Shown piece after piece: positions 1 to 10,535 of a stretch of DNA of 64,000 nt. The translations under genes were made by a program, and so were the position numbers. The notes under the pieces were generated by a model that was given only the letters and a program-made list of their open reading frames with translations, did not search any database and was not told the DNA's origin. The stretch lies in NCBI RefSeq assembly GCF_003018235.1, contig NZ_CP027439.1; one strand, given 5' to 3'. Origin of the DNA: Escherichia coli. Lineage in GTDB: Bacteria > Pseudomonadota > Gammaproteobacteria > Enterobacterales > Enterobacteriaceae. How positions within the stretch are numbered: position 1 is the stretch's first letter; each line of letters opens with the position of its first letter.

Positions 1-1269
1 CGCCTGTATGCCGCGTCACGTCTTGACCCGGAGACGTATAAGAAAGTCCATGATGCCGGTTTCCGCTGGGCACCAAAACAGGCGCTGTTTGTCGCGCCAG
101 CTTGGACACCGGGCCGGGAAGATGTGCTCCTCTCACTTGCCGGAGAGATTGAGGATGAAGACAGCACACTCGCTGAACGTCAGGAAGCACGGGCGGAGCG
201 GTTTACTGGATACAGCGGAAAGCGGGCCAGTGAATCCGCACAGGCACTTGATGAAGTGGAAAGACTGGCCGCGATGATCCCGCCCGGTCAGCCCATTCTT
301 GTGGGGCATCACAGCGAACGCCGCGCCCGTCGTGATGCGCAGCGTATTGAAAACGGCATGAAACGTGCTGTGATGCTCTTTGAACGTGCAGAATACTGGG
401 AAGAGCGGGCGCGCTCGGCACTGCTTCACGCGAAGTATAAAGAACGTCCGGACGTTCGCTGGCGTCGTATCAAAAAAATCGAAGCTGATTTGCGCAAGTC
501 TGAAAAGACCATCGCGCAGTCGCAGAAATATCTGACGATGTGGCGGGCTGAATCGCTGGATCTGAATATGGCAAAACTCATCAGCAGTCATGACCATATC
601 AGCGCCTGTTTCCCGCTGGATACGTATCCGCGCCCGGCAGAAAAAAGCCAGTATGAAGGAAGTCGCTCGTTATGGTCGGCCCTGGATGATGACATCATCA
701 CCACGGAGCAGGCCCGTGAAATTGCGATCCGCTGTCATGAACGGCAGATTCAGCGTCAGCAACGCTGGGTTAACCACTATCAGAACCGCCTGATCTATGA
801 GCGTGCCATGCTGGACGAAAGCGGCGGCGTGGTTACCCGGACACAGGATTTTGAGCCGGGCGGACAGGTTTTCAGCCGGGGTGAGTGGCTGACCATCATC
901 CGCGTGAACAAAAGCAACGGGGCGGTGAGTTCAGTCACAACGCCAAATTACAGTTTTCTCGGGTACAGCGGCACGATGAAAGTGACGCCCGATCGCATCA
1001 CGGACTACAAAGCACCATCGGCAGAAGAGGCTGCCGTCGCCAGCCAGGCCGCGAAGCGTCCGCCGGTAGTCAACTATCCGGGGGAAGGTTTCCGGGAAAT
1101 GACAAAGGCACAGTGGGCCGCCCTGCCCCGGGACTGTAAGGCCGTGCGCAGTGTGGCAGAAGCAGAAGACCACGGGGCATACCGCTACCGCCGCACAATG
1201 GACAATAATTTCCGTCTGGTGAATGTGTATATCACCGACATGAAAATTACGGAAATCCCACAGAAATAA
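1..1269 (+). CDS. Leading-region protein of unknown function, 5' end lies outside the window
   Basis: Reading frame is open from window position 1 with no upstream stop; the listed 381-aa ORF 124..1269 is its C-terminal part. Sits upstream of the methyltransferase and ssb, as in F-like leading regions. Confidence 0.55.
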   Translation, partial: RLYAASRLDPETYKKVHDAGFRWAPKQALFVAPAWTPGREDVLLSLAGEIEDEDSTLAERQEARAERFTGYSGKRASESAQALDEVERLAAMIPPGQPILVGHHSERRARRDAQRIENGMKRAVMLFERAEYWEERARSALLHAKYKERPDVRWRRIKKIEADLRKSEKTIAQSQKYLTMWRAESLDLNMAKLISSHDHISACFPLDTYPRPAEKSQYEGSRSLWSALDDDIITTEQAREIAIRCHERQIQRQQRWVNHYQNRLIYERAMLDESGGVVTRTQDFEPGGQVFSRGEWLTIIRVNKSNGAVSSVTTPNYSFLGYSGTMKVTPDRITDYKAPSAEEAAVASQAAKRPPVVNYPGEGFREMTKAQWAALPRDCKAVRSVAEAEDHGAYRYRRTMDNNFRLVNVYITDMKITEIPQK

Positions 1270-1315
1270 GGTATATCCCCCCGGGAAATCCCCGGGGGAT
1301 GACGGAGATAATGAC

Positions 1316-1879
1316 ATGCACAGTCAGTTAAAAGAACGTATCCGGCTGATGCGCGCAAGGCTGGATAACGCCGCGCCGGTTGCTGAAATCCGGGCTGAAT
1401 CTCAGCTTTTTGTGACTCCTGCCCCGGTCTGTGATCGCCTGGTGACGCTGGCGGAGATCAGCAACCGTGATCACATTCTGGAACCCTCTGCCGGCACCGG
1501 GGCCATACTGCGGGCGATTCGGGATACCGCGCCGGGGGCCATGTGTGATGCGGTGGAAATCAACAGCGGGCTGGTCCGGTATCTGCGGGAAAATTTTAAC
1601 GGTGTCAGGGTTCAGTGTGGCGACTTCATGGAATGGCAGCCGGTGCAGTATTACAGCCGGGTTATCATGAATCCGCCGTTCAGCCACGGGCAGGATATCC
1701 GGCATATCCTGCGGGCCTTTTCCCTGTTGCGTCCGGGTGGCGTGCTGGTTGCCGTCTGTCTGAACGGGCCGCGCCAGCAGGAGAAGCTGTTACCGTTTTC
1801 TGACGTCCGCGAGGAGCTGCCACGCGGCACGTTTGCTTATACCGATGTTCCGACGATGATTATTCGTCTGCGTGCCTGA
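1316..1879 (+). CDS. Orphan DNA methyltransferase (N6-adenine type)
   Basis: 187-aa ORF with AdoMet-binding motif EPSAGTGA and catalytic NPPF motif; no adjacent restriction endonuclease gene. Confidence 0.75.
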   Translation: MHSQLKERIRLMRARLDNAAPVAEIRAESQLFVTPAPVCDRLVTLAEISNRDHILEPSAGTGAILRAIRDTAPGAMCDAVEINSGLVRYLRENFNGVRVQCGDFMEWQPVQYYSRVIMNPPFSHGQDIRHILRAFSLLRPGGVLVAVCLNGPRQQEKLLPFSDVREELPRGTFAYTDVPTMIIRLRA

Positions 1880-2060
1880 TGACTCCGGGCAGGCGGGAGG
1901 ACAAATGCCCGTCTGCCCGCGCCGGGAAAAGACCGCGCGCCGGTGGCGCTGAAAGGGGCCGCGCTCACGCGCCGCCCCTTACATTACGCGGACATTCTGC
2001 TGTGGGCTTCTGTCTTTTCAGACCTGTCATTTGTCTGTTACTGATGATGTTGTTGTTCCT

Positions 2061-2108
2061 GCTACTGCTACTGCTACTGCTACTGCTACTGCTACTGCTA
2101 CTGCTACT
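2061..2108. repeat. Hexanucleotide microsatellite (GCTACT)x8
   Basis: Eight perfect tandem copies read directly from the sequence; preceded by TGATGA/TGTTGT triplet repeats. Confidence 0.9.
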
Positions 2109-2109
2109 G

Positions 2110-2700
2110 TTCTTCTTTTTTCTGCTGTTCTGATTACTGCCTGTTTTGTTGTTCTCCTGCTTATGCCTTTTCCGGGCGTCCCCCTGGCGGGGCGGGCTGT
2201 CGTGAACGGAGCCAGCGAAGCTGTCTCCGCCCTGGCGGGCTTCCATCCCTGACGCGAAACCCCGGGCTTGCAGCGACCGTTCCGGTCGCGCCGCCTCTGT
2301 CGCGCCGTGGCCTGCGCTCCCGGCATCCCGGCAAAAGGCCGCCGGGATGTAAGGGGCAACGCCGTTTCGCAAACCGCGCTTCACGTCGTTGCGGCGGGTC
2401 CCTGTCCGTTGTTGTGTCCGGTGCCATTCACCTGTTTAAGCCCCTGTCGCCGGGGGCTGATACAGCCACAACCGTCTCCGCCAGTCCAGGGGTGAAATGT
2501 ACATCCCGCAAAACTTTTTGCCCAAAAGCAGGCAAAAACTTTTGCGGTCTGCCCCCGGACAGTCGTTTCCGGCCGTGGCAGTGATGCCCCTTGCGGCGAA
2601 GGTTCTCAAAAAGGTGATGGTGAATACCGGAGGGAACAAAAGGCAGGTCCCCGCAAAACGTCAAAACCGCGGCTCCCGAAACTCAAAAGATGATGGGGGC
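2110..2700 (+). promoter_or_regulatory. Frpo/ssi-like structured repeat, copy A (candidate single-strand promoter) upstream of ssb
   Basis: About 600 bp of GC-rich, hairpin-dense non-coding DNA ending just before the ssb RBS; paralogous to 7480..8125. Contains hairpin 2506..2547 (ccgcaaaactttttgcc/ggcaaaaacttttgcgg). Confidence 0.5.
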
Positions 2701-2728
2701 TGAAAACATCAACAGAAGGAGGCACATC

Positions 2729-3558
<830 letters not shown>

Positions 3559-3621
3559 GAGAGGTGCCGGACGGGAACGCGTCCGGCAGACATACAACCA
3601 TCCCGGTCAAAGGAGAAATAT

Positions 3622-5580
3622 ATGTCAGTTACAGAGTCTAAGACAAAAACGGAGCGTAAATCCAGCCGTAAACCTGCAAAAACGCAGGAAACAGTCCTGT
3701 CTGCCCTGCTGGCGCAGACGGAGGAAGTGAGCGTGCCGCTGGCCTCACTGATTAAATCACCGCTGAATGTGCGCACGGTGCCGTATTCTGCGGAGTCCGT
3801 CAGCGAACTGGCGGACTCCATTAAAGGCGTCGGCCTGTTACAGAATCTGGTTGTTCATGCCCTGCCAGGTGACCGTTACGGTGTCGCCGCAGGTGGTCGC
3901 CGACTGGCTGCACTCAACATGCTGGCAGAGCGTGGCATCATTCCGGCTGACTGGCCTGTCCGTGTGAAGGTCATTCCGCAGGAGCTGGCGACGGCGGCAT
4001 CAATGACTGAAAACGGTCATCGTCGGGATATGCACCCTGCTGAACAGATTGCCGGATTCCGCGCAATGGCGCAGGAAGGCAAAACACCTGCACAAATCGG
4101 TGATTTGCTGGGCTATTCACCCCGCCATGTCCAGCGAATGCTGAAACTGGCAGATCTTGCGCCTGTCATCCTCGATGCGCTGGCAGAAGACCGCATCACC
4201 ACCGAACACTGTCAGGCGCTGGCACTGGAGAACGACACCGCGCGTCAGGTGCAGGTGTTTGAAGCCGCCTGCCAGTCAGGATGGGGTGGAAAACCGGAAG
4301 TGCAGACCATTCGTCGTCTGGTGACCGAAAGTGAAGTGGCGGTGGCGGGGAACAGTAAATTCCGCTTCGTGGGGGCTGATGCCTTCTCGCCAGATGAACT
4401 GCGCACCGATTTGTTCAGCGACGACGAGGGTGGCTATGTGGACTGTGTTGCGCTCGATGTCGCCCTGCTGGAAAAACTCCAGGCTGTCGCAGAGTTCCTT
4501 CGGGAAGCCGAAGGCTGGGAATGGTGCGCCGGACGTATGGAGCCTGTTGGTGAGTGCCGTGAGGATGCCGGAACATACCGCTGTCTGCCGGAGCCGGAAG
4601 CGGTGCTGACGGAGGCGGAAGAAGAACGCCTGAACGAACTGATGGCACGTTACGACGCGCCGGAAAACCAGAGTGAGGAATCCGACCTGCTGGAAGCCGA
4701 AATGAAGCTGATGCGCTGCATGGCGAAGGTCAGGGCGTGGACGCCGGAGATGCGTGCCGGAAGTGGCGTGGTGGTGTCCTGGCGTTATGGCAACGTGTGT
4801 GTCCAGCGTGGTGTGCAGTTGCGCAGTGAGGATGATGTGGCTGATAACGATTACCGCACGGAACAGGTGCAGGAGAAAGCCTCAGTGGAGGAAATCAGTC
4901 TGCCGCTGCTGACGAAAATGTCCTCAGAGCGCACGCTGGCAGTCCAGGCGGCACTGATGCAGCAATCAGACAAATCCCTGGCACTTCTGGCATGGACACT
5001 CTGTCTGAATGTATTTGGCAGTGGAGCGTACAGCAATCCCGCCAGAATCCGCCTGGAATGTGAGCATTATTCGCTGACCAGCGATGCGCCGTCAGGGAAG
5101 GAAGGTGCCGCATTCATGGCGATGATGGCAGAAAAAGCCCGTCTTGCCGCCCTGCTGCCGGATGGATGGGCACGGGATATGACGACGTTCCTGTCACTCA
5201 GTCAGGAGGTGCTGTTATCACTGCTCAGTTTCTGCACCGCGTGCAGTATCCACGGTGTCCAGACCCGTGAGTATGGTCACACGTCACGCAGTCCGCTGGA
5301 TTCGCTGGAAAGCGCCATCGGCTTTCACATGCGCGACTGGTGGCAGCCGACAAAAGCAAACTTCTTCGGACACCTGAAAAAGCCGCAGATTATCGCAGCC
5401 CTGAATGAGGCAGGACTGTCCGGTGCTGCACGGGACGCGGAGAAGATGAAGAAAGGCGATGCGGCTGAACATGCAGAGTTCCACATGAAAGACAACCGCT
5501 GGGTGCCTGGCTGGATGTGTGCACCACGCCCACAGACGGATGCCACTGAACGCACCGATAACCTGGCTGATGCCGCCTGA
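3622..5580 (+). CDS. ParB-like nuclease-domain protein (leading region)
   Basis: 652-aa ORF whose N-terminal region has a ParB/Srx-like fold signature (LLQNLVVHALPGDRYGVAAGGRRLAALNM); RBS AAGGAG upstream. Confidence 0.7.
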   Translation: MSVTESKTKTERKSSRKPAKTQETVLSALLAQTEEVSVPLASLIKSPLNVRTVPYSAESVSELADSIKGVGLLQNLVVHALPGDRYGVAAGGRRLAALNMLAERGIIPADWPVRVKVIPQELATAASMTENGHRRDMHPAEQIAGFRAMAQEGKTPAQIGDLLGYSPRHVQRMLKLADLAPVILDALAEDRITTEHCQALALENDTARQVQVFEAACQSGWGGKPEVQTIRRLVTESEVAVAGNSKFRFVGADAFSPDELRTDLFSDDEGGYVDCVALDVALLEKLQAVAEFLREAEGWEWCAGRMEPVGECREDAGTYRCLPEPEAVLTEAEEERLNELMARYDAPENQSEESDLLEAEMKLMRCMAKVRAWTPEMRAGSGVVVSWRYGNVCVQRGVQLRSEDDVADNDYRTEQVQEKASVEEISLPLLTKMSSERTLAVQAALMQQSDKSLALLAWTLCLNVFGSGAYSNPARIRLECEHYSLTSDAPSGKEGAAFMAMMAEKARLAALLPDGWARDMTTFLSLSQEVLLSLLSFCTACSIHGVQTREYGHTSRSPLDSLESAIGFHMRDWWQPTKANFFGHLKKPQIIAALNEAGLSGAARDAEKMKKGDAAEHAEFHMKDNRWVPGWMCAPRPQTDATERTDNLADAA

Positions 5581-5634
5581 TGAACAACCACACCGCCCCG
5601 CCGGAGACGGGGCGGCAGCAAGGGAGATACCGTG

Positions 5635-6069
5635 ATGAAAACTGAACTGACCCTGAATGTATTACAGACCATGAACGCACAGGAATATGAAGATATCCGG
5701 GCTGCCGGAAGTGATGAACGCCGTGAGCTGACTCACGCCGTGATGCGGGAGCTGGATGCGCCGGATAACTGGACGATGAACGGCGAGTACGGCAGCGAGT
5801 TTGGCGGCTTTTTCCCCGTCCAGGTCCGTTTCACGCCTGCCCACGAACGTTTTCACCTGGCGTTATGTTCACCGGGCGATGTCTCTCAGGTCTGGGTGCT
5901 GGTTCTGGTGAATGCCGGTGGTGAGCCGTTTGCGGTGGTTCAGGTACAGCGGCGGTTTGCACCGGAAGCCGTCAGCCATTCACTGGCACTGGCGGCGTCA
6001 CTGGATACGCAGGGGTACAGCGTTAACGACATCATCCATATCCTGATGGCGGAAGGAGGTCAGGTATGA
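5635..6069 (+). CDS. psiB: Plasmid SOS inhibition protein B
   Basis: 144-aa product starting [25 protein letters not shown], matching PsiB in length and sequence. Confidence 0.9.
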
Positions 6070-6785
6070 GCGTACGTTCACAGGCACTGGTTCCCCTCAG
6101 CACAGAGCAACAGGCCGCATGGCGGGCGGTGGCGGAGACAGAAAAACGCCGCCATCAGGGTAACACGCTGGCGGAATATCCGTATGCGGGGGCGTTTTTC
6201 CGCTGTCTGAACGGAAGCCGCAGGATATCGCTGTCTGACCTGCGATTTTTCATGCCGTCCCTGACCGCAGAAGAACTGCACGGCAACCGTCTTCAGTGGC
6301 TGTATGCAGTCGATGTGCTGATTGAAACACAGGGCGAGGTCTGCCTCCTTCCCCTTCCCGGTGATGCAGCAGAGCGGTTGTTTCCGTCGGTGCGGTTTCG
6401 TGTCAGGGAGCGCAGTCGCCATAAATCCGCGCTGGTCATGCAGAAGTACAGCCGCCAGCAGGCACGGGAGGCAGAGCAGAAAGCCCGTGCGTACCAGGCG
6501 CTGGTCGCTCAGGCTGAAATCGAACTGGCATTCCATTCGCCGGAAACAGTCGGAAGCTGGCATGCACGCTGGAGTGACCGGGTGGCAGAGCATGACCTGG
6601 AAACCCTGTTCTGGCAGTGGGGCGAGCGTTTTCCGTCACTGGCCGGAATGGAACGCTGGCAGTGGCAGGATATGCCGTTCTGGCAGGTTATTGCGGAAGC
6701 CAGTCTTGCAGCAAGAGAGGCCGGTCACGCTGTCCGTGAGATGGAGCGGTGGATGGTGCCGAACAAACTCCGGGAGGCTGCGTGA
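6066..6785 (+). CDS. psiA: Plasmid SOS inhibition protein A
   Basis: 239 aa, start overlaps the psiB stop (ATGA); conserved psiB-psiA operon arrangement. Confidence 0.85.
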
Positions 6786-6929
6786 TGCGGCAACAATCAC
6801 ACAGATTACCCGTAAACAGCCTGAATGAGCGGGTTATTTTCAGGAAAAGTGAGTGTGGTCAGCGTGCAGGGATATGGGCTATGATGTGCCCGGCGCTTGA
6901 GGCTTTCTGCCTCATGACGTGAAGGTGGT

Positions 6930-7010
6930 TTGTTGCCGTGTTGTGTGGCAGAAAGAAGATAGCCCCGTAGTAAGTTAATTTTCATTAACCACCACGAGGC
7001 ATCCCTATGT
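6930..7010 (-). ncRNA. sok: Sok/FlmB-like antisense RNA of the hok-type killer locus (approximate position)
   Basis: Placed from the hok/sok paradigm: antisense to the leader and mok start upstream of hok. No promoter or ends were mapped. Confidence 0.3.
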
Positions 7011-7219
7011 CTAGTCCACATCAGGATAGCCTCTTACCGCGCTTTGCGCAAGGAGAAGAAGGCCATGAAACTACCACGAAGTTCCCTTGTCTGGTGTGTG
7101 TTGATCGTGTGTCTCACACTGTTGATATTCACTTATCTGACACGAAAATCGCTGTGCGAGATTCGTTACAGAGACGGACACAGGGAGGTGGCGGCTTTCA
7201 TGGCTTACGAATCCGGTAA
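7007..7219 (+). CDS. mok: Mok/FlmC-like overlapping reading frame (modulation of killing)
   Basis: 70-aa ORF overlapping hok in a different frame, as in hok/sok and flm loci. Confidence 0.6.
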
Positions 7220-7223: not shown

Positions 7224-7479
7224 CAACCTGGAGGCGGGCGCAGGCCCGCCTTTTCAGGACTGATGCTGGTCTGACTACTGAAGCGCCTTTATAAAGGGGC
7301 TGCTGGTTCGCTGGTAGCCCCTTTCTCCTTGCTGATGTTGTACGGGCATGAACAACCTGACTTCAGGAAGATCGTTTCCCTTCAGGAACGGGGATGAACG
7401 CGCGCCTGCGGCGCCCGTTCTTTTCCCCCGCCTTCTCTGGTTATGGCCTGTCAGAAATCACATCACCTTCCCTGTGATT

Positions 7480-8125
7480 ATTCTCTTTTTCTTCCTGCTC
7501 TGATTCTGACTACTGCAGTGTTGTCCTGTCTGCTAGGCGCACCTTCGGCTCCCGGCTGCCTGGCGGCATCCGGTCGTCAGGCCCGACTCCGACAGGCAGC
7601 TGCTGGCGCACCTGCCAGTCTCCGCCGAACCCGCTGGCGCGGTTTCGGGCTGTCGCTACGGTCCGATGCGTGAAAACCACAGGCTTGCAGCGACCGTTCC
7701 GGTCGCGCCGCCTCTGTCGCGCCGTAGCCTGCGCTCCCGGCATCCCGGCAAAAGGCCGCCGGGATGTAAGGGGCAACGCCGTTTCGCAAACCGCGCTTCA
7801 CGTCGTTGCGGCGGGTCCCTGCCCGTTGTTGTGTCCGGTGCCATTCACCTGTTTAAGCCCCTGTCGCCGGGGGCTGATACAGCCACAACCTGCCGCACTG
7901 ACTGTCCAGGGTAAATGAACAGCCCACAAAATTTTTTACCCAAAACCCGGTAAAAAATTTTGCGTTCTGCCCAGGACAGGTGCGTCAGGCCGTGGCAGTG
8001 ATGCCCCTTGCGGCGAAGGTTCTCAAACAGGTGATGGTTAATACCGGAGGGAACAAAAGGCAGGTCCCCGCAAAACGTCAAAACCGCGGCTCCCGAAACT
8101 CAACAGATGATGGGGGCTGAAAACC
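7480..8125 (+). promoter_or_regulatory. Frpo/ssi-like structured repeat, copy B, upstream of the orf95-like gene
   Basis: Paralogue of 2110..2700 with long identical blocks (7683..7897, 7985..8125). Hairpin 7925..7964 (cacaaaattttttacc/ggtaaaaaattttgcg) carries compensatory changes relative to copy A. Confidence 0.5.
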
Positions 8126-8137
8126 AGAGAAAGCAGG

Positions 8138-8425
8138 ATGAGTACCCGAAATATCCACGTTAACACCGCGTCGTACACGCTTCTTGTTGCCGGGAAGAAA
8201 AAAAACACCGGGGAAGAGTGGGACGTCCTGGAATTCAGCAGCCTGACTGAGCTGAAAAAATATCGCAAAAGCCACCCGGAAAAGATGGCCTTCAGCTATA
8301 GCTACGCGCTCAGCCAGGGTGTGGATACGCAGTTCCGCCATATCAACATTGCGGAAGCTGATCACTTCAAACAGTTCCTGCGTCAGATTAAGCGTGCCGG
8401 CCTCGATATCCGGGCGATCTGCTGA
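8138..8425 (+). CDS. Leading-region protein, orf95-like
   Basis: 95-aa ORF directly downstream of Frpo-like copy B. Confidence 0.6.
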   Translation: MSTRNIHVNTASYTLLVAGKKKNTGEEWDVLEFSSLTELKKYRKSHPEKMAFSYSYALSQGVDTQFRHINIAEADHFKQFLRQIKRAGLDIRAIC

Positions 8426-8542
8426 CCGGATGTGATGAATATCCCTCCTGATTGTTGCAATGTTGTTAATGGAGAACGGGGGGATGATATTAAGCGGAAA
8501 AATTTTTTATTAAATTTATTCTTTCATAAAGGAGTAGCTGTT

Positions 8543-9364
8543 ATGCGATTAGCTTCCCGTTTTGGTCGGTATAATTCCATCCGCCGTGAACGTCCTTTAA
8601 CGGATGATGAATTAATGCAGTTCGTGCCTTCGGTATTTTCCGGTGATAAACATGAGTCCCGGAGTGAACGTTATACGTATATTCCAACAATCAATATCAT
8701 CAATAAGTTACGTGATGAAGGTTTCCAGCCATTCTTTGCCTGTCAGAGTCGGGTTCGTGATTTGGGGCGTCGGGAATACAGTAAATATATGTTACGTCTT
8801 CGTAGGGAAGGGCATATTAACGGGCAGGAAGTTCCTGAAATTATCCTGCTTAATTCACATGATGGTTCATCCAGTTATCAGATGATCCCGGGAATTTTTC
8901 GTTTTGTCTGCACAAATGGCCTGGTGTGCGGAAATAATTTTGGCGAAATCCGCGTTCCACATAAAGGTGATATTGTCGGGCAGGTTATCGAGGGAGCGTA
9001 TGAAGTGCTCGGTGTCTTTGATAAGGTCACTGATAATATGGAGGCAATGAAAGAAATTCATCTTAACAGTGACGAGCAACATTTATTTGGCAGAGCTGCC
9101 CTGATGGTCAGGTATGAAGATGAAAATAAAACGCCGGTGACGCCTGAACAGATAATTACTCCCCGTCGTCGGGAGGATAAACAGAACGATCTCTGGACAA
9201 CCTGGCAGCGGGTTCAGGAGAATATGATAAAAGGTGGATTATCGGGGCGAAGTGCCTCCGGGAAAAATACCAGGACAAGAGCCATTACAGGTATTGATGG
9301 TGATATAAGAATCAACAAAGCATTATGGATGATTGCCGAACAGTTCAGGGAGTGGAAGTCATGA
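8543..9364 (+). CDS. Leading-region protein, orf273-like (DUF932-type)
   Basis: 273-aa product from internal start MRLASRFGRY; size and position match the F-like orf273. Confidence 0.6.
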   Translation: MRLASRFGRYNSIRRERPLTDDELMQFVPSVFSGDKHESRSERYTYIPTINIINKLRDEGFQPFFACQSRVRDLGRREYSKYMLRLRREGHINGQEVPEIILLNSHDGSSSYQMIPGIFRFVCTNGLVCGNNFGEIRVPHKGDIVGQVIEGAYEVLGVFDKVTDNMEAMKEIHLNSDEQHLFGRAALMVRYEDENKTPVTPEQIITPRRREDKQNDLWTTWQRVQENMIKGGLSGRSASGKNTRTRAITGIDGDIRINKALWMIAEQFREWKS

Positions 9365-9660
9365 TAATATAAGTAAAGCCCCGAAAAATTTTTCGGGGCT
9401 TTACTTATATTATCATCCTGCGGCATTGCTATGTCGTCTGATATGCCTCAATTTCATCAACTGGCTTTTCGGTAGTATGTAAATATTGTGCCCGCGAAAA
9501 ATGGTCTGGCAGGAGGCTGCGCAGTTACCGGATATATATAAGATGGGTTCCCGCTTTGCGGGGCTTCGGCCAGTCAGTATTGTCACTCATATGATATTTT
9601 TGTGTGTGGCCTTCCATGCCGCTTTTGCGGCATAACCGATATCTGACAATGTCTGTAAGA

Positions 9661-10170
9661 TTAATTGTTCTGCACGCTGTTAATTTCCGGAAGTGATTTC
9701 TTCGTGGTCGGAACCTGGATGCCTTTACTGCTCTTTATCCCGGTATAAATCCGGTAAACCTCTGATGCGTAGGCAAGACGTCTCTGGTTCTGGCGTTCGG
9801 TCTTCCTGAATCCAGCATTGTATGCACCAACGGCCTCCCAGGAGACGCCCCATTTTTTAAAGGCTATTGCCAGATAATAAGCACCGGTATAAATGTTCAT
9901 GCAGGGATCTGTTGTCAGATGTTCCGGCTTAATTCCATAGCGGGCCAGTTCGTTAAAATGCTGGGAATCTACCTGCATCAGTCCGCTGCCATATCCCGTT
10001 ACCGGATTAATACCGATGGCATTAACCCGGTAACGGGATTCTTTCCATGATATTGCTCTCAGTAAATCAGGATCTATTTTGTAATCCCGGCCTGCAAGAT
10101 CAAAGCAATCAGTGGCATGGCAGATCTCATTTATAAACATCAGGCAGATGGCTAACATCCATTTTTTCAT
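9661..10170 (-). CDS. Lytic transglycosylase (orf169 / gene 19 family, VirB1-like)
   Basis: 169 aa with signal peptide [12 protein letters not shown] and transglycosylase motifs ([24 protein letters not shown]); RBS AGGTGG. Confidence 0.85.
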
Positions 10171-10239
10171 TTTTCCACCTCTGGTGACTTTATCCGTAAA
10201 TAATTTAACCCACTCCACAAAAAGGCTCAACAGGTTGGT

Positions 10240-10535
10240 GGTTCTCACCACCAAAAGCACCACACCCCACGCAAAAACAAGTTTTTGCTGATTTTTCTTT
10301 ATAAATAGAGAGTTATGAAAAATTAGTTTCTCTTACTCTCTTTATGATATTTAAAAAAGCGGTGGTACTGACTATTTTTATAAAAAACATTATTTTATAT
10401 TAGGGGCGCTGCTAGCGGCGCGGTGTGTTTTTTTATAGGATAACGCCAGGGGCGCTGCTAGCGGTGCGTCCCTGTTTGCATTATGAATTTTAGTGTTTCG
10501 AAATTAACTTTATTTTATGTTCAAAAAAGGTAATC
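10240..10535. other. oriT: nic region, inverted repeats and direct repeats consistent with TraM binding sites
   Basis: Minus strand reads GGTGGTGAGAACCACC...TTTGCGTGGGGTGTGGTGCTTTTGGTGG (F-type nic motif, nick near 10261/10262); direct repeats GGGGCGCTGCTAGCGG at ~10403 and ~10451; AT-rich tracts. Confidence 0.8.

Follow-up and report, generated by a model that had tools for sequence, protein, structure and literature searches.

The window, by which we mean the whole 64,000-nt stretch of Escherichia coli DNA that was analysed (contig NZ_CP027439.1), is DNA of an IncF-type conjugative plasmid. The local gene order is psiB-psiA-hok/sok-Frpo-orf95-orf273-SLT-oriT-traM. On the plus strand, ssb, a DUF905 gene and a ParB-like gene (3622–5580) are followed by psiB (5632–6069), psiA (6066–6785) and sok/hok (sok at 6891–7067 by an Rfam match), and a long non-coding stretch lies between sok/hok and orf95. 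Gene X, which encodes an SLT transglycosylase, is on the minus strand at 9661–10263; beyond it, traM, traJ, traY and traA are on the plus strand. When we compared the block from 7400 to 9700 with plasmid records, at least 5,000 records matched; among the matches listed, 2,561 cover at least 80% of the block, the hosts are mostly Escherichia, Klebsiella, Salmonella and Shigella and the majority of the plasmids are typed as conjugative. The top match is an IncFIA/IncFIC, MOBF plasmid. Within the block, a G+C-rich ORF of 76 aa (7443–7673, plus strand) adjoins the Frpo repeat; it is found as the hypothetical protein WP_001426396.1 in RefSeq plasmids and has no Pfam match. This ORF is presumably yubN, and it may not be a real gene.

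Two genes of the leading region

The first-pass annotation of this DNA had placed an orf95-like and an orf273-like gene at 8138–9364, and we found that both ORFs are present and are 99% and 98% identical to the F proteins, respectively. The first, orf95 (8138–8425, plus strand), begins with ATG and encodes a basic protein of 95 aa (pI 9.5) that matches the F-plasmid protein (NC_002483, 64032–64319) at 94 residues; this identity and the same position behind Frpo1 place it in the YgeA/YubO (orf95) family of F. A profile search found no Pfam or NCBIfam family for orf95. In an exhaustive search of 1.84 billion representatives, only 74 relatives were found, with 52 cluster representatives at E ≤ 1e-10; many of them are shortened variants and approximately 30 are genuine homologues, down to 35% identity, which have the core EF-SL-ELK-FRK-PEKM-Y-Y-LS...H-FKQF in common. 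The fold is predicted to be beta-beta-alpha-beta-beta-alpha. Just before the ATG (8123–8137), 7 nt of F are missing: the F sequence is CCAGAGAGAGGAGAAAGCAGGATG and the sequence here is CCAGAGAAAGCAGGATG. Because this deletion takes out the GAGG Shine-Dalgarno core, translation of orf95 may be weaker in this lineage. The plasmid pYD786-2 has kept the F-type sequence upstream of the orf95 ATG.

The second gene, orf273 (8543–9364, plus strand; 'gene 32' of R1), encodes a DUF932 protein of 273 aa (pI 8.9), identical to F orf273 at 268 of the 273 residues. The program-made ORF list had started this frame at GTG 8432 (310 aa); this start was rejected in favour of ATG 8543. The ATG has an AAAGGAG ribosome-binding site 8 nt before it, MRLASRF is the start of all orf273 homologues, and F has a 1-nt indel in the orf95/orf273 spacer that breaks the frame of the GTG extension, indicating that the spacer is non-coding. 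The spacer (8426–8542, plus strand) is 117 nt long with 35% G+C and holds the orf273 ribosome-binding site. At the codon level, orf273 and its F counterpart differ at 14 synonymous versus 5 non-synonymous positions. Judged from their sequences, neither orf95 nor orf273 is a chance reading frame and both are under purifying selection.

Profile searches and structure prediction had been put forward in the first-pass annotation as ways to examine the pair. orf273 matches Pfam DUF932 (PF06067; UPF0380) over the full length of the model, with 175.1 bits against a cut-off of 23 and an E value of 2.4e-51 (residues 36–262 align with model positions 1–227 of 227). The NCBIfam model TIGR03299 (phage/plasmid-like protein) scored 19.6 bits against a cut-off of 110.7, which makes it no more than a distant relative. 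More than 5,400 homologues of orf273 were found; it matches two PHROG families of unknown function, it has no match in PADLOC, and DUF932 is widespread in phages. An AlphaFold2 model of orf95 has a pLDDT of 80.9, and orf273 is predicted to consist of an N-terminal alpha/beta domain and a C-terminal helical bundle. Searching BFVD with the orf273 model in Foldseek returned only uncharacterised DUF932/TIGR03299 phage proteins, with structural alignments at 11–15% identity. No relative with a solved structure was found for either protein; phmmer and profile hmmsearch against PDB sequences gave sub-threshold noise (sugar epimerases, guanylate kinase). The description of the two as conserved leading-region genes without an assigned biochemical function thus holds, DUF932 being the only family assigned to the pair. 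Both proteins are basic and hydrophilic.

To describe conservation in DUF932, we used 75 aligned sequences that are 46–65% identical to orf273 and therefore only a moderately diverse sample. In these sequences, H37, R40, Y44, Q68, R72, K81-H82, R85, R87, E99, L-L-N-S-H-D-G at 102–108, S110-S111-Y112-Q113, R120, C123, N125, H140 and E150 are each conserved at 97% or above. Such a polar pattern is more suggestive of an active or ligand-binding site than of a scaffold. Confidence in the model is lowest in the loop with the conserved C123 and N125 (pLDDT below 50 for residues 121–132).

A perfect 56-nt palindrome (9361–9416), with 33-nt arms that are 100% complementary, overlaps the orf273 stop codon; approximately 245 nt separate it from the end of gene X, which is convergent. 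The Rfam matches to it are spurious hairpins only. The palindrome is likely the end of the operon, as a bidirectional terminator or hairpin. On the entering strand, too, it would fold into a hairpin.

The first-pass annotation had missed the names of these genes, and it had missed that the checks it proposed were largely published already. In the work of Couturier et al. on F, primers OL507 and OL508 flank exactly orf95, so ygeA is orf95, and the position of primer OL514, on the palindrome beyond the stop codon of orf273, identifies this gene as ygeB (Couturier et al., 2023; PMC9849209). Two primer pairs are apparently swapped in the strain table of that paper. The alternative names yubO (orf95) and yubP (orf273) come from the annotation of pS88, where the order is yubN-yubO-yubP-yubQ.

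The transferred strand and the upstream Frpo-type element

We found the oriT nic-site core GTGGGGTGT/GG on the minus strand at 10260–10270; it is the exact nic sequence of F and puts nic at approximately 10262. The context TTTTTGCGTGGGGTGTGGTGCTTTTGGTGGTGAGAACCACC around it is what we take to be F oriT sequence. This location of the nic sequence makes the minus strand the one that is transferred, and it is also the template of orf95 and orf273. From nic, 5' to 3', the order of entry is gene X, orf273, orf95 and the Frpo element, which is 2.1–2.6 kb from nic. Gene X is encoded on the transferred strand itself and therefore has no transcription until the complementary strand is made, in agreement with published work in which early production of YgfA is absent. 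The longest ORF of gene X runs into the nic site, indicating that its true start is further downstream.

Upstream of orf95, repeat, homology and fold identify a Frpo-type (class 1) single-strand promoter element on the minus strand at 7674–8124. This element and the other Frpo-type copy (2257–2707, minus strand; equivalent to Frpo2/ssp1b, with ssb directly downstream) are direct repeats that are 92% identical overall, and comparison of the window with itself found no further Frpo copies or paralogues. By segment, 7674–8124 is 93–99% identical to one or the other F Frpo copy. When the minus strand from 7600 to 8137 was folded as single-stranded DNA, we obtained –159.1 kcal/mol as compared to –104.8 ± 5.2 kcal/mol for shuffled sequences (z –10.5). 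The minimum-free-energy structure has a core imperfect hairpin of 319 nt and 123 bp (7781–8099, minus strand) with an A/T-rich apex loop at 7941–7948, and its arms were recovered as a self-inverted match at 7811–8071. The element thus has three properties of class 1: homology to Frpo1 and Frpo2, exceptional hairpin stability and a transferred strand that is the template of the downstream genes. Inspecting the hairpin stem by eye, we placed no –35 or –10 hexamers convincingly in either arm. A promoter scan of the duplex form found no plus-strand sigma-70 consensus upstream of orf95, which fits an operon that is silent when double-stranded. From its orientation, the element would work on the minus (transferred) strand and drive plus-sense transcription into orf95.

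The first-pass annotation had called this element the second Frpo-like element. Its Frpo-like nature is borne out by the repeat, the homology to F and the folding score; the word 'second' reflects numbering along the window only. The element is proximal to nic and enters first, and it therefore corresponds to Frpo1/ssp1a, the original Frpo of F.

Relative to F, the apices of the two Frpo copies (approximately 100 nt; 7890–7987 and 2473–2570) are swapped. The apex of the copy before orf95 is 99% identical to that of F Frpo2 and only 65% identical to that of F Frpo1, and the apex of the copy before ssb is of the Frpo1 type (97%). The flanks of all four copies, two here and two in F, are 89–100% identical; an apex swap within conserved flanks suggests that the direct repeats have exchanged sequence by recombination or gene conversion, with interchangeable apex cassettes. 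Just upstream of the ssb-side copy, at 2035–2130, there are CTG/CTA-rich repeats with a 12-nt period. A different kind of change is seen in pYD786-2 (NZ_KU254579.1), where an IS110-family element of approximately 1.38 kb is inserted at window position 8105/8106, 32 nt upstream of orf95, where it separates the gene from the base of the Frpo hairpin. This plasmid is otherwise 99% identical and is typed as conjugative, and its insertion is a natural uncoupling of promoter and operon.

Among known systems, the closest is Frpo1-ygeA-ygeB of F, which has the same gene order, a homologous hairpin promoter on the same strand relative to nic, and the same palindrome after the stop codon, in addition to the protein identities given above. 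Unlike F, the copy here has an apex of the F Frpo2 type, lacks the 7 nt with GAGG, and has 1 and 5 amino-acid changes in orf95 and orf273, respectively. The ssi1-3 promoters of ColIb-P9 and the class 1 promoters of pESBL belong to the same sequence class and are likewise hairpins of the transferred strand that rebuild a sigma-70 promoter (PMC12672017); however, these IncI promoters drive ssb, psiB, ardA and similar genes.

Neighbourhoods of orf95 and DUF932 homologues

We examined whether the two genes form an obligate pair. As a general rule, an obligate orf95-DUF932 pair was rejected by the co-occurrence test. None of 80 DUF932 loci on viral or island contigs from IMG/VR contains an orf95 homologue, and no DUF932 gene is adjacent to the distant orf95 homologues. 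These distant homologues occupy leading regions of plasmids, with SLT and TraM two genes away in one case. The closer IMG/VR loci of DUF932 are islands resembling CP4-57. The chromosomal relatives of orf273 in K-12, the UPF0380 proteins YfjQ and YafZ, and their CP4-57-type homologues are DUF932 proteins of similar length that are also uncharacterised, with 62–67% identity at the island loci. In contrast to orf273, they lack both an orf95 partner and a Frpo element; a YfjP-like GTPase comes before them, and a WYL regulator, Antirestriction (PF03230) and RadC come after.

In an F-like plasmid (GCA_040138765.1; positions 1043–5726 of the locus), hok is followed by a structured gap, an orf95 homologue (66% identity), six further genes and then DUF932. 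The six inserted genes encode an N6 DNA methylase and five small proteins without Pfam matches. The hairpin before this orf95 homologue has no blastn similarity to Frpo; it nevertheless folds strongly (z –6.8), its apex is similarly A/T-rich, and the design of a hairpin ahead of orf95 is thus kept elsewhere. The interval between orf95 and DUF932 resembles a cargo site for genes of the leading region. The stable arrangement in the IncF-type examples is therefore a hairpin, orf95 first, a variable slot, and DUF932 last before oriT.

Before distant orf95 homologues in two other plasmids (L003 and L004), we observed a recurrent intergenic element containing the inverted repeat ATGCGC-GTA-GCGCAT (L003: 1845–1859 and 4761–4775; L004: 3775–3789 and 5298–5312). 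The element occurs twice per plasmid, each time upstream of leading-region gene clusters. In L003, it has a near-consensus TTGAAA-17-TATAAT promoter; in L004, a KorA-family gene lies just upstream. It may represent repressor-controlled zygotic induction that replaces the single-strand promoter. The motif is absent from the window.

Early expression, establishment and possible functions

The expression of this operon has been studied in F, where the original Frpo was renamed Frpo1 and placed upstream of ygeA and ygeB (Couturier et al., 2023; PMC9849209). In F transconjugants, YgeA-sfGFP appears before the conversion from single-stranded to double-stranded DNA, peaks at approximately 5 min and ends after 25–35 min; it is undetectable in donors and is abolished by deletion of Frpo1 (PMC9849209). 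RNA-seq found Frpo1-regulated transcripts to be enriched in F transconjugants (Wen et al., 2025; PMC12672017). Early production is thus documented at the protein level for YgeA only and for YgeB by operon-level RNA only. Transcription from single-stranded DNA that depends on RNA polymerase and SSB has been demonstrated for F Frpo (PMC9849209; PMC12672017; Fraikin et al., 2026). Early conversion at ygeB is rifampicin-sensitive, indicating that ssp1a transcripts prime complementary-strand synthesis in vivo (Fraikin et al., 2026). The first-pass annotation had predicted early expression in the recipient from the position of the genes behind a single-strand promoter, and this has been demonstrated for F genes that are 98–99% identical (PMC9849209; PMC12672017). 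By analogy with F, we infer that the operon would also be expressed early from single-stranded DNA in this plasmid. The hairpin apex of the Frpo2 type and the missing 7 nt with GAGG weigh against carrying the F result over to this copy unchanged.

Knockouts in F bear on what the proteins do. Transconjugants after 3 h amounted to 92.6% for wild-type F, 25.2% for ΔFrpo1, 32.7% for ΔFrpo1-ygeAB, 14.5% for ΔFrpo1-ygeA and 3.9% for ΔygeA, and ΔygeB alone was not constructible (PMC9849209); these values are confounded in that the constructs removing both genes also remove Frpo1, a primer source for the complementary strand, the FRT scars are possibly polar, and no complementation was reported. The first-pass annotation had proposed the two genes as establishment candidates and had tied this proposal to knockouts having a phenotype; the published F knockouts do have one and support it (PMC9849209). 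From these imperfect knockouts, we consider that the orf95 and orf273 proteins probably aid plasmid establishment. In the literature on orf95/orf273, yubO/yubP, yfjQ/yafZ and DUF932/DUF945, we found no functional study beyond those cited here.

One way to read the same values is that the selected function is the cis-acting Frpo, as the primer of the complementary strand, and that the two ORFs are mere passengers of little consequence. Frpo transcripts prime DNA synthesis both in vitro and in vivo, the defects of ΔFrpo1 and ΔFrpo1-ygeAB are similar (PMC9849209), and the natural IS insertion in pYD786-2 separates the promoter from the genes. Leading-region deletions that are still transfer-proficient, described in older reports, count in the same direction. 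However, the strongest phenotype is that of ΔygeA, in which Frpo1 is intact (PMC9849209). Both proteins are under purifying selection, and DUF932 is kept across plasmids, islands and phages that have no Frpo, and we therefore regard a purely cis-acting role as very improbable.

The F genetics also suggest a dosage relationship between orf95 and orf273, since ΔygeA is worse than loss of the promoter and both genes and ΔygeB alone was never built (PMC9849209). This would be expected if the two formed a toxin-antitoxin-like or mutually neutralising module whose imbalance kills or arrests the new host. However, polarity or scar effects explain the F genetics equally well, the orf95 and DUF932 families are phyletically independent, and neither protein matches a toxin-antitoxin family or has the features of a type II pair. 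A bona fide hok/sok module is already present immediately upstream, and because the operon is silent in duplex form in F, it could not support post-segregational addiction. Such a module is thus quite unlikely, if somewhat less so than a role in cis alone.

A third explanation, which the first-pass annotation had also raised, is that one or both proteins are dedicated anti-defence factors (anti-restriction or similar) that neutralise the immunity of the recipient during entry. The leading region is enriched for anti-defence genes and the operon is under a single-strand promoter. DUF932 adjoins Antirestriction (PF03230) and RadC genes in the CP4-57-like islands, and in the one F-like plasmid, GCA_040138765.1, the genes that separate the orf95 and DUF932 homologues include an orphan N6 DNA methylase. 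Among leading-region families, DUF945/YubP ranks third in size (4,661 members; median position 1 from oriT), and it has been tagged 'anti-restriction', a label based on Foldseek matches for only 4 + 1 members (Samuel et al., 2024). On the other side, the F phenotypes arose in isogenic K-12 matings, which pose no strong establishment barrier (Fraikin et al., 2026), and neither protein has a profile or fold match to known anti-restriction or anti-CRISPR families (ArdA, ArdB/KlcA, ArdC, Ocr-type mimics, Acr). PsiB, SSB, ArdA and KlcA/ArdB are like orf95 and orf273 in expression logic and genomic neighbourhood but have no sequence or fold similarity to them. DNA mimics of the ArdA type are acidic. 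The basic pI values of 9.5 and 8.9 argue against an anti-restriction protein of that type. Taken together, an anti-defence role is possible but fairly unlikely, and our searches lend it no support.

The explanation that we prefer is that the locus carries, in intact form, the 'zygotic induction' operon Frpo1(ssp1a)-ygeA-ygeB known from F-like (IncF, MOBF) plasmids. The minus strand would be nicked at approximately 10262 and would enter the recipient with its 5' end first, so that gene X, orf273, orf95 and the Frpo element would arrive within seconds. The Frpo element would then fold on itself into an imperfect hairpin of approximately 320 nt that mimics a duplex sigma-70 promoter, and host RNA polymerase would copy the transferred strand towards nic through orf95 and orf273, halting at the palindrome at 9361–9416. 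The operon transcript may also prime synthesis of the complementary strand, which would destroy the hairpin and turn the operon off. Two small, basic, soluble proteins would thereby be made in a brief burst, and only in the new host. We put the probability of this explanation as a whole at roughly 0.7. The identity of the operon, its strand logic and its hairpin here, together with early Frpo1-dependent expression in F, are jointly close to certain. The operon itself has already been described, and this copy differs only in minor sequence variants and adds no new element.

As to biochemistry, a tentative guess is that both proteins target nucleic acid, whether the incoming DNA itself or a host factor that handles nucleic acid; this guess is based on charge, on conservation in moderately diverged sequences and on sub-threshold fold resemblances. 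DUF932 would be the effector that is conserved, perhaps an enzyme with invariant His/Asp/Ser/Cys/Asn/Arg motifs at its core, and orf95 an accessory or modulator of the IncF lineage whose dosage is balanced with DUF932; neither would be a DNA mimic or a member of a known anti-restriction family. Across thousands of conjugative elements, DUF932 is the family that most often adjoins oriT, and it is also common in phages. A more specific version, which we consider unlikely though worth stating, is that DUF932 is an enzyme of unsolved fold with an invariant N-S-H-D-G / R-x-V-C-x-N / H-x-G centre that acts within minutes of transfer and is balanced by orf95 in IncF plasmids. If this were true, its target would be the entering DNA or a host factor, and the balance would explain why ΔygeA is worse than loss of the operon and why orf273 is not deletable alone. 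A balanced pair agrees with the genetics but not with the phylogeny.

In E. coli, Klebsiella, Salmonella and Shigella, IncF plasmids are the principal vehicles of resistance and virulence genes. YgeA and YgeB are the first proteins that such a plasmid makes in its new host, and among the leading-region genes tested in F, their knockouts impair conjugation the most. Learning their function would therefore close a genuine gap, and the two proteins are a possible target for blocking plasmid establishment.
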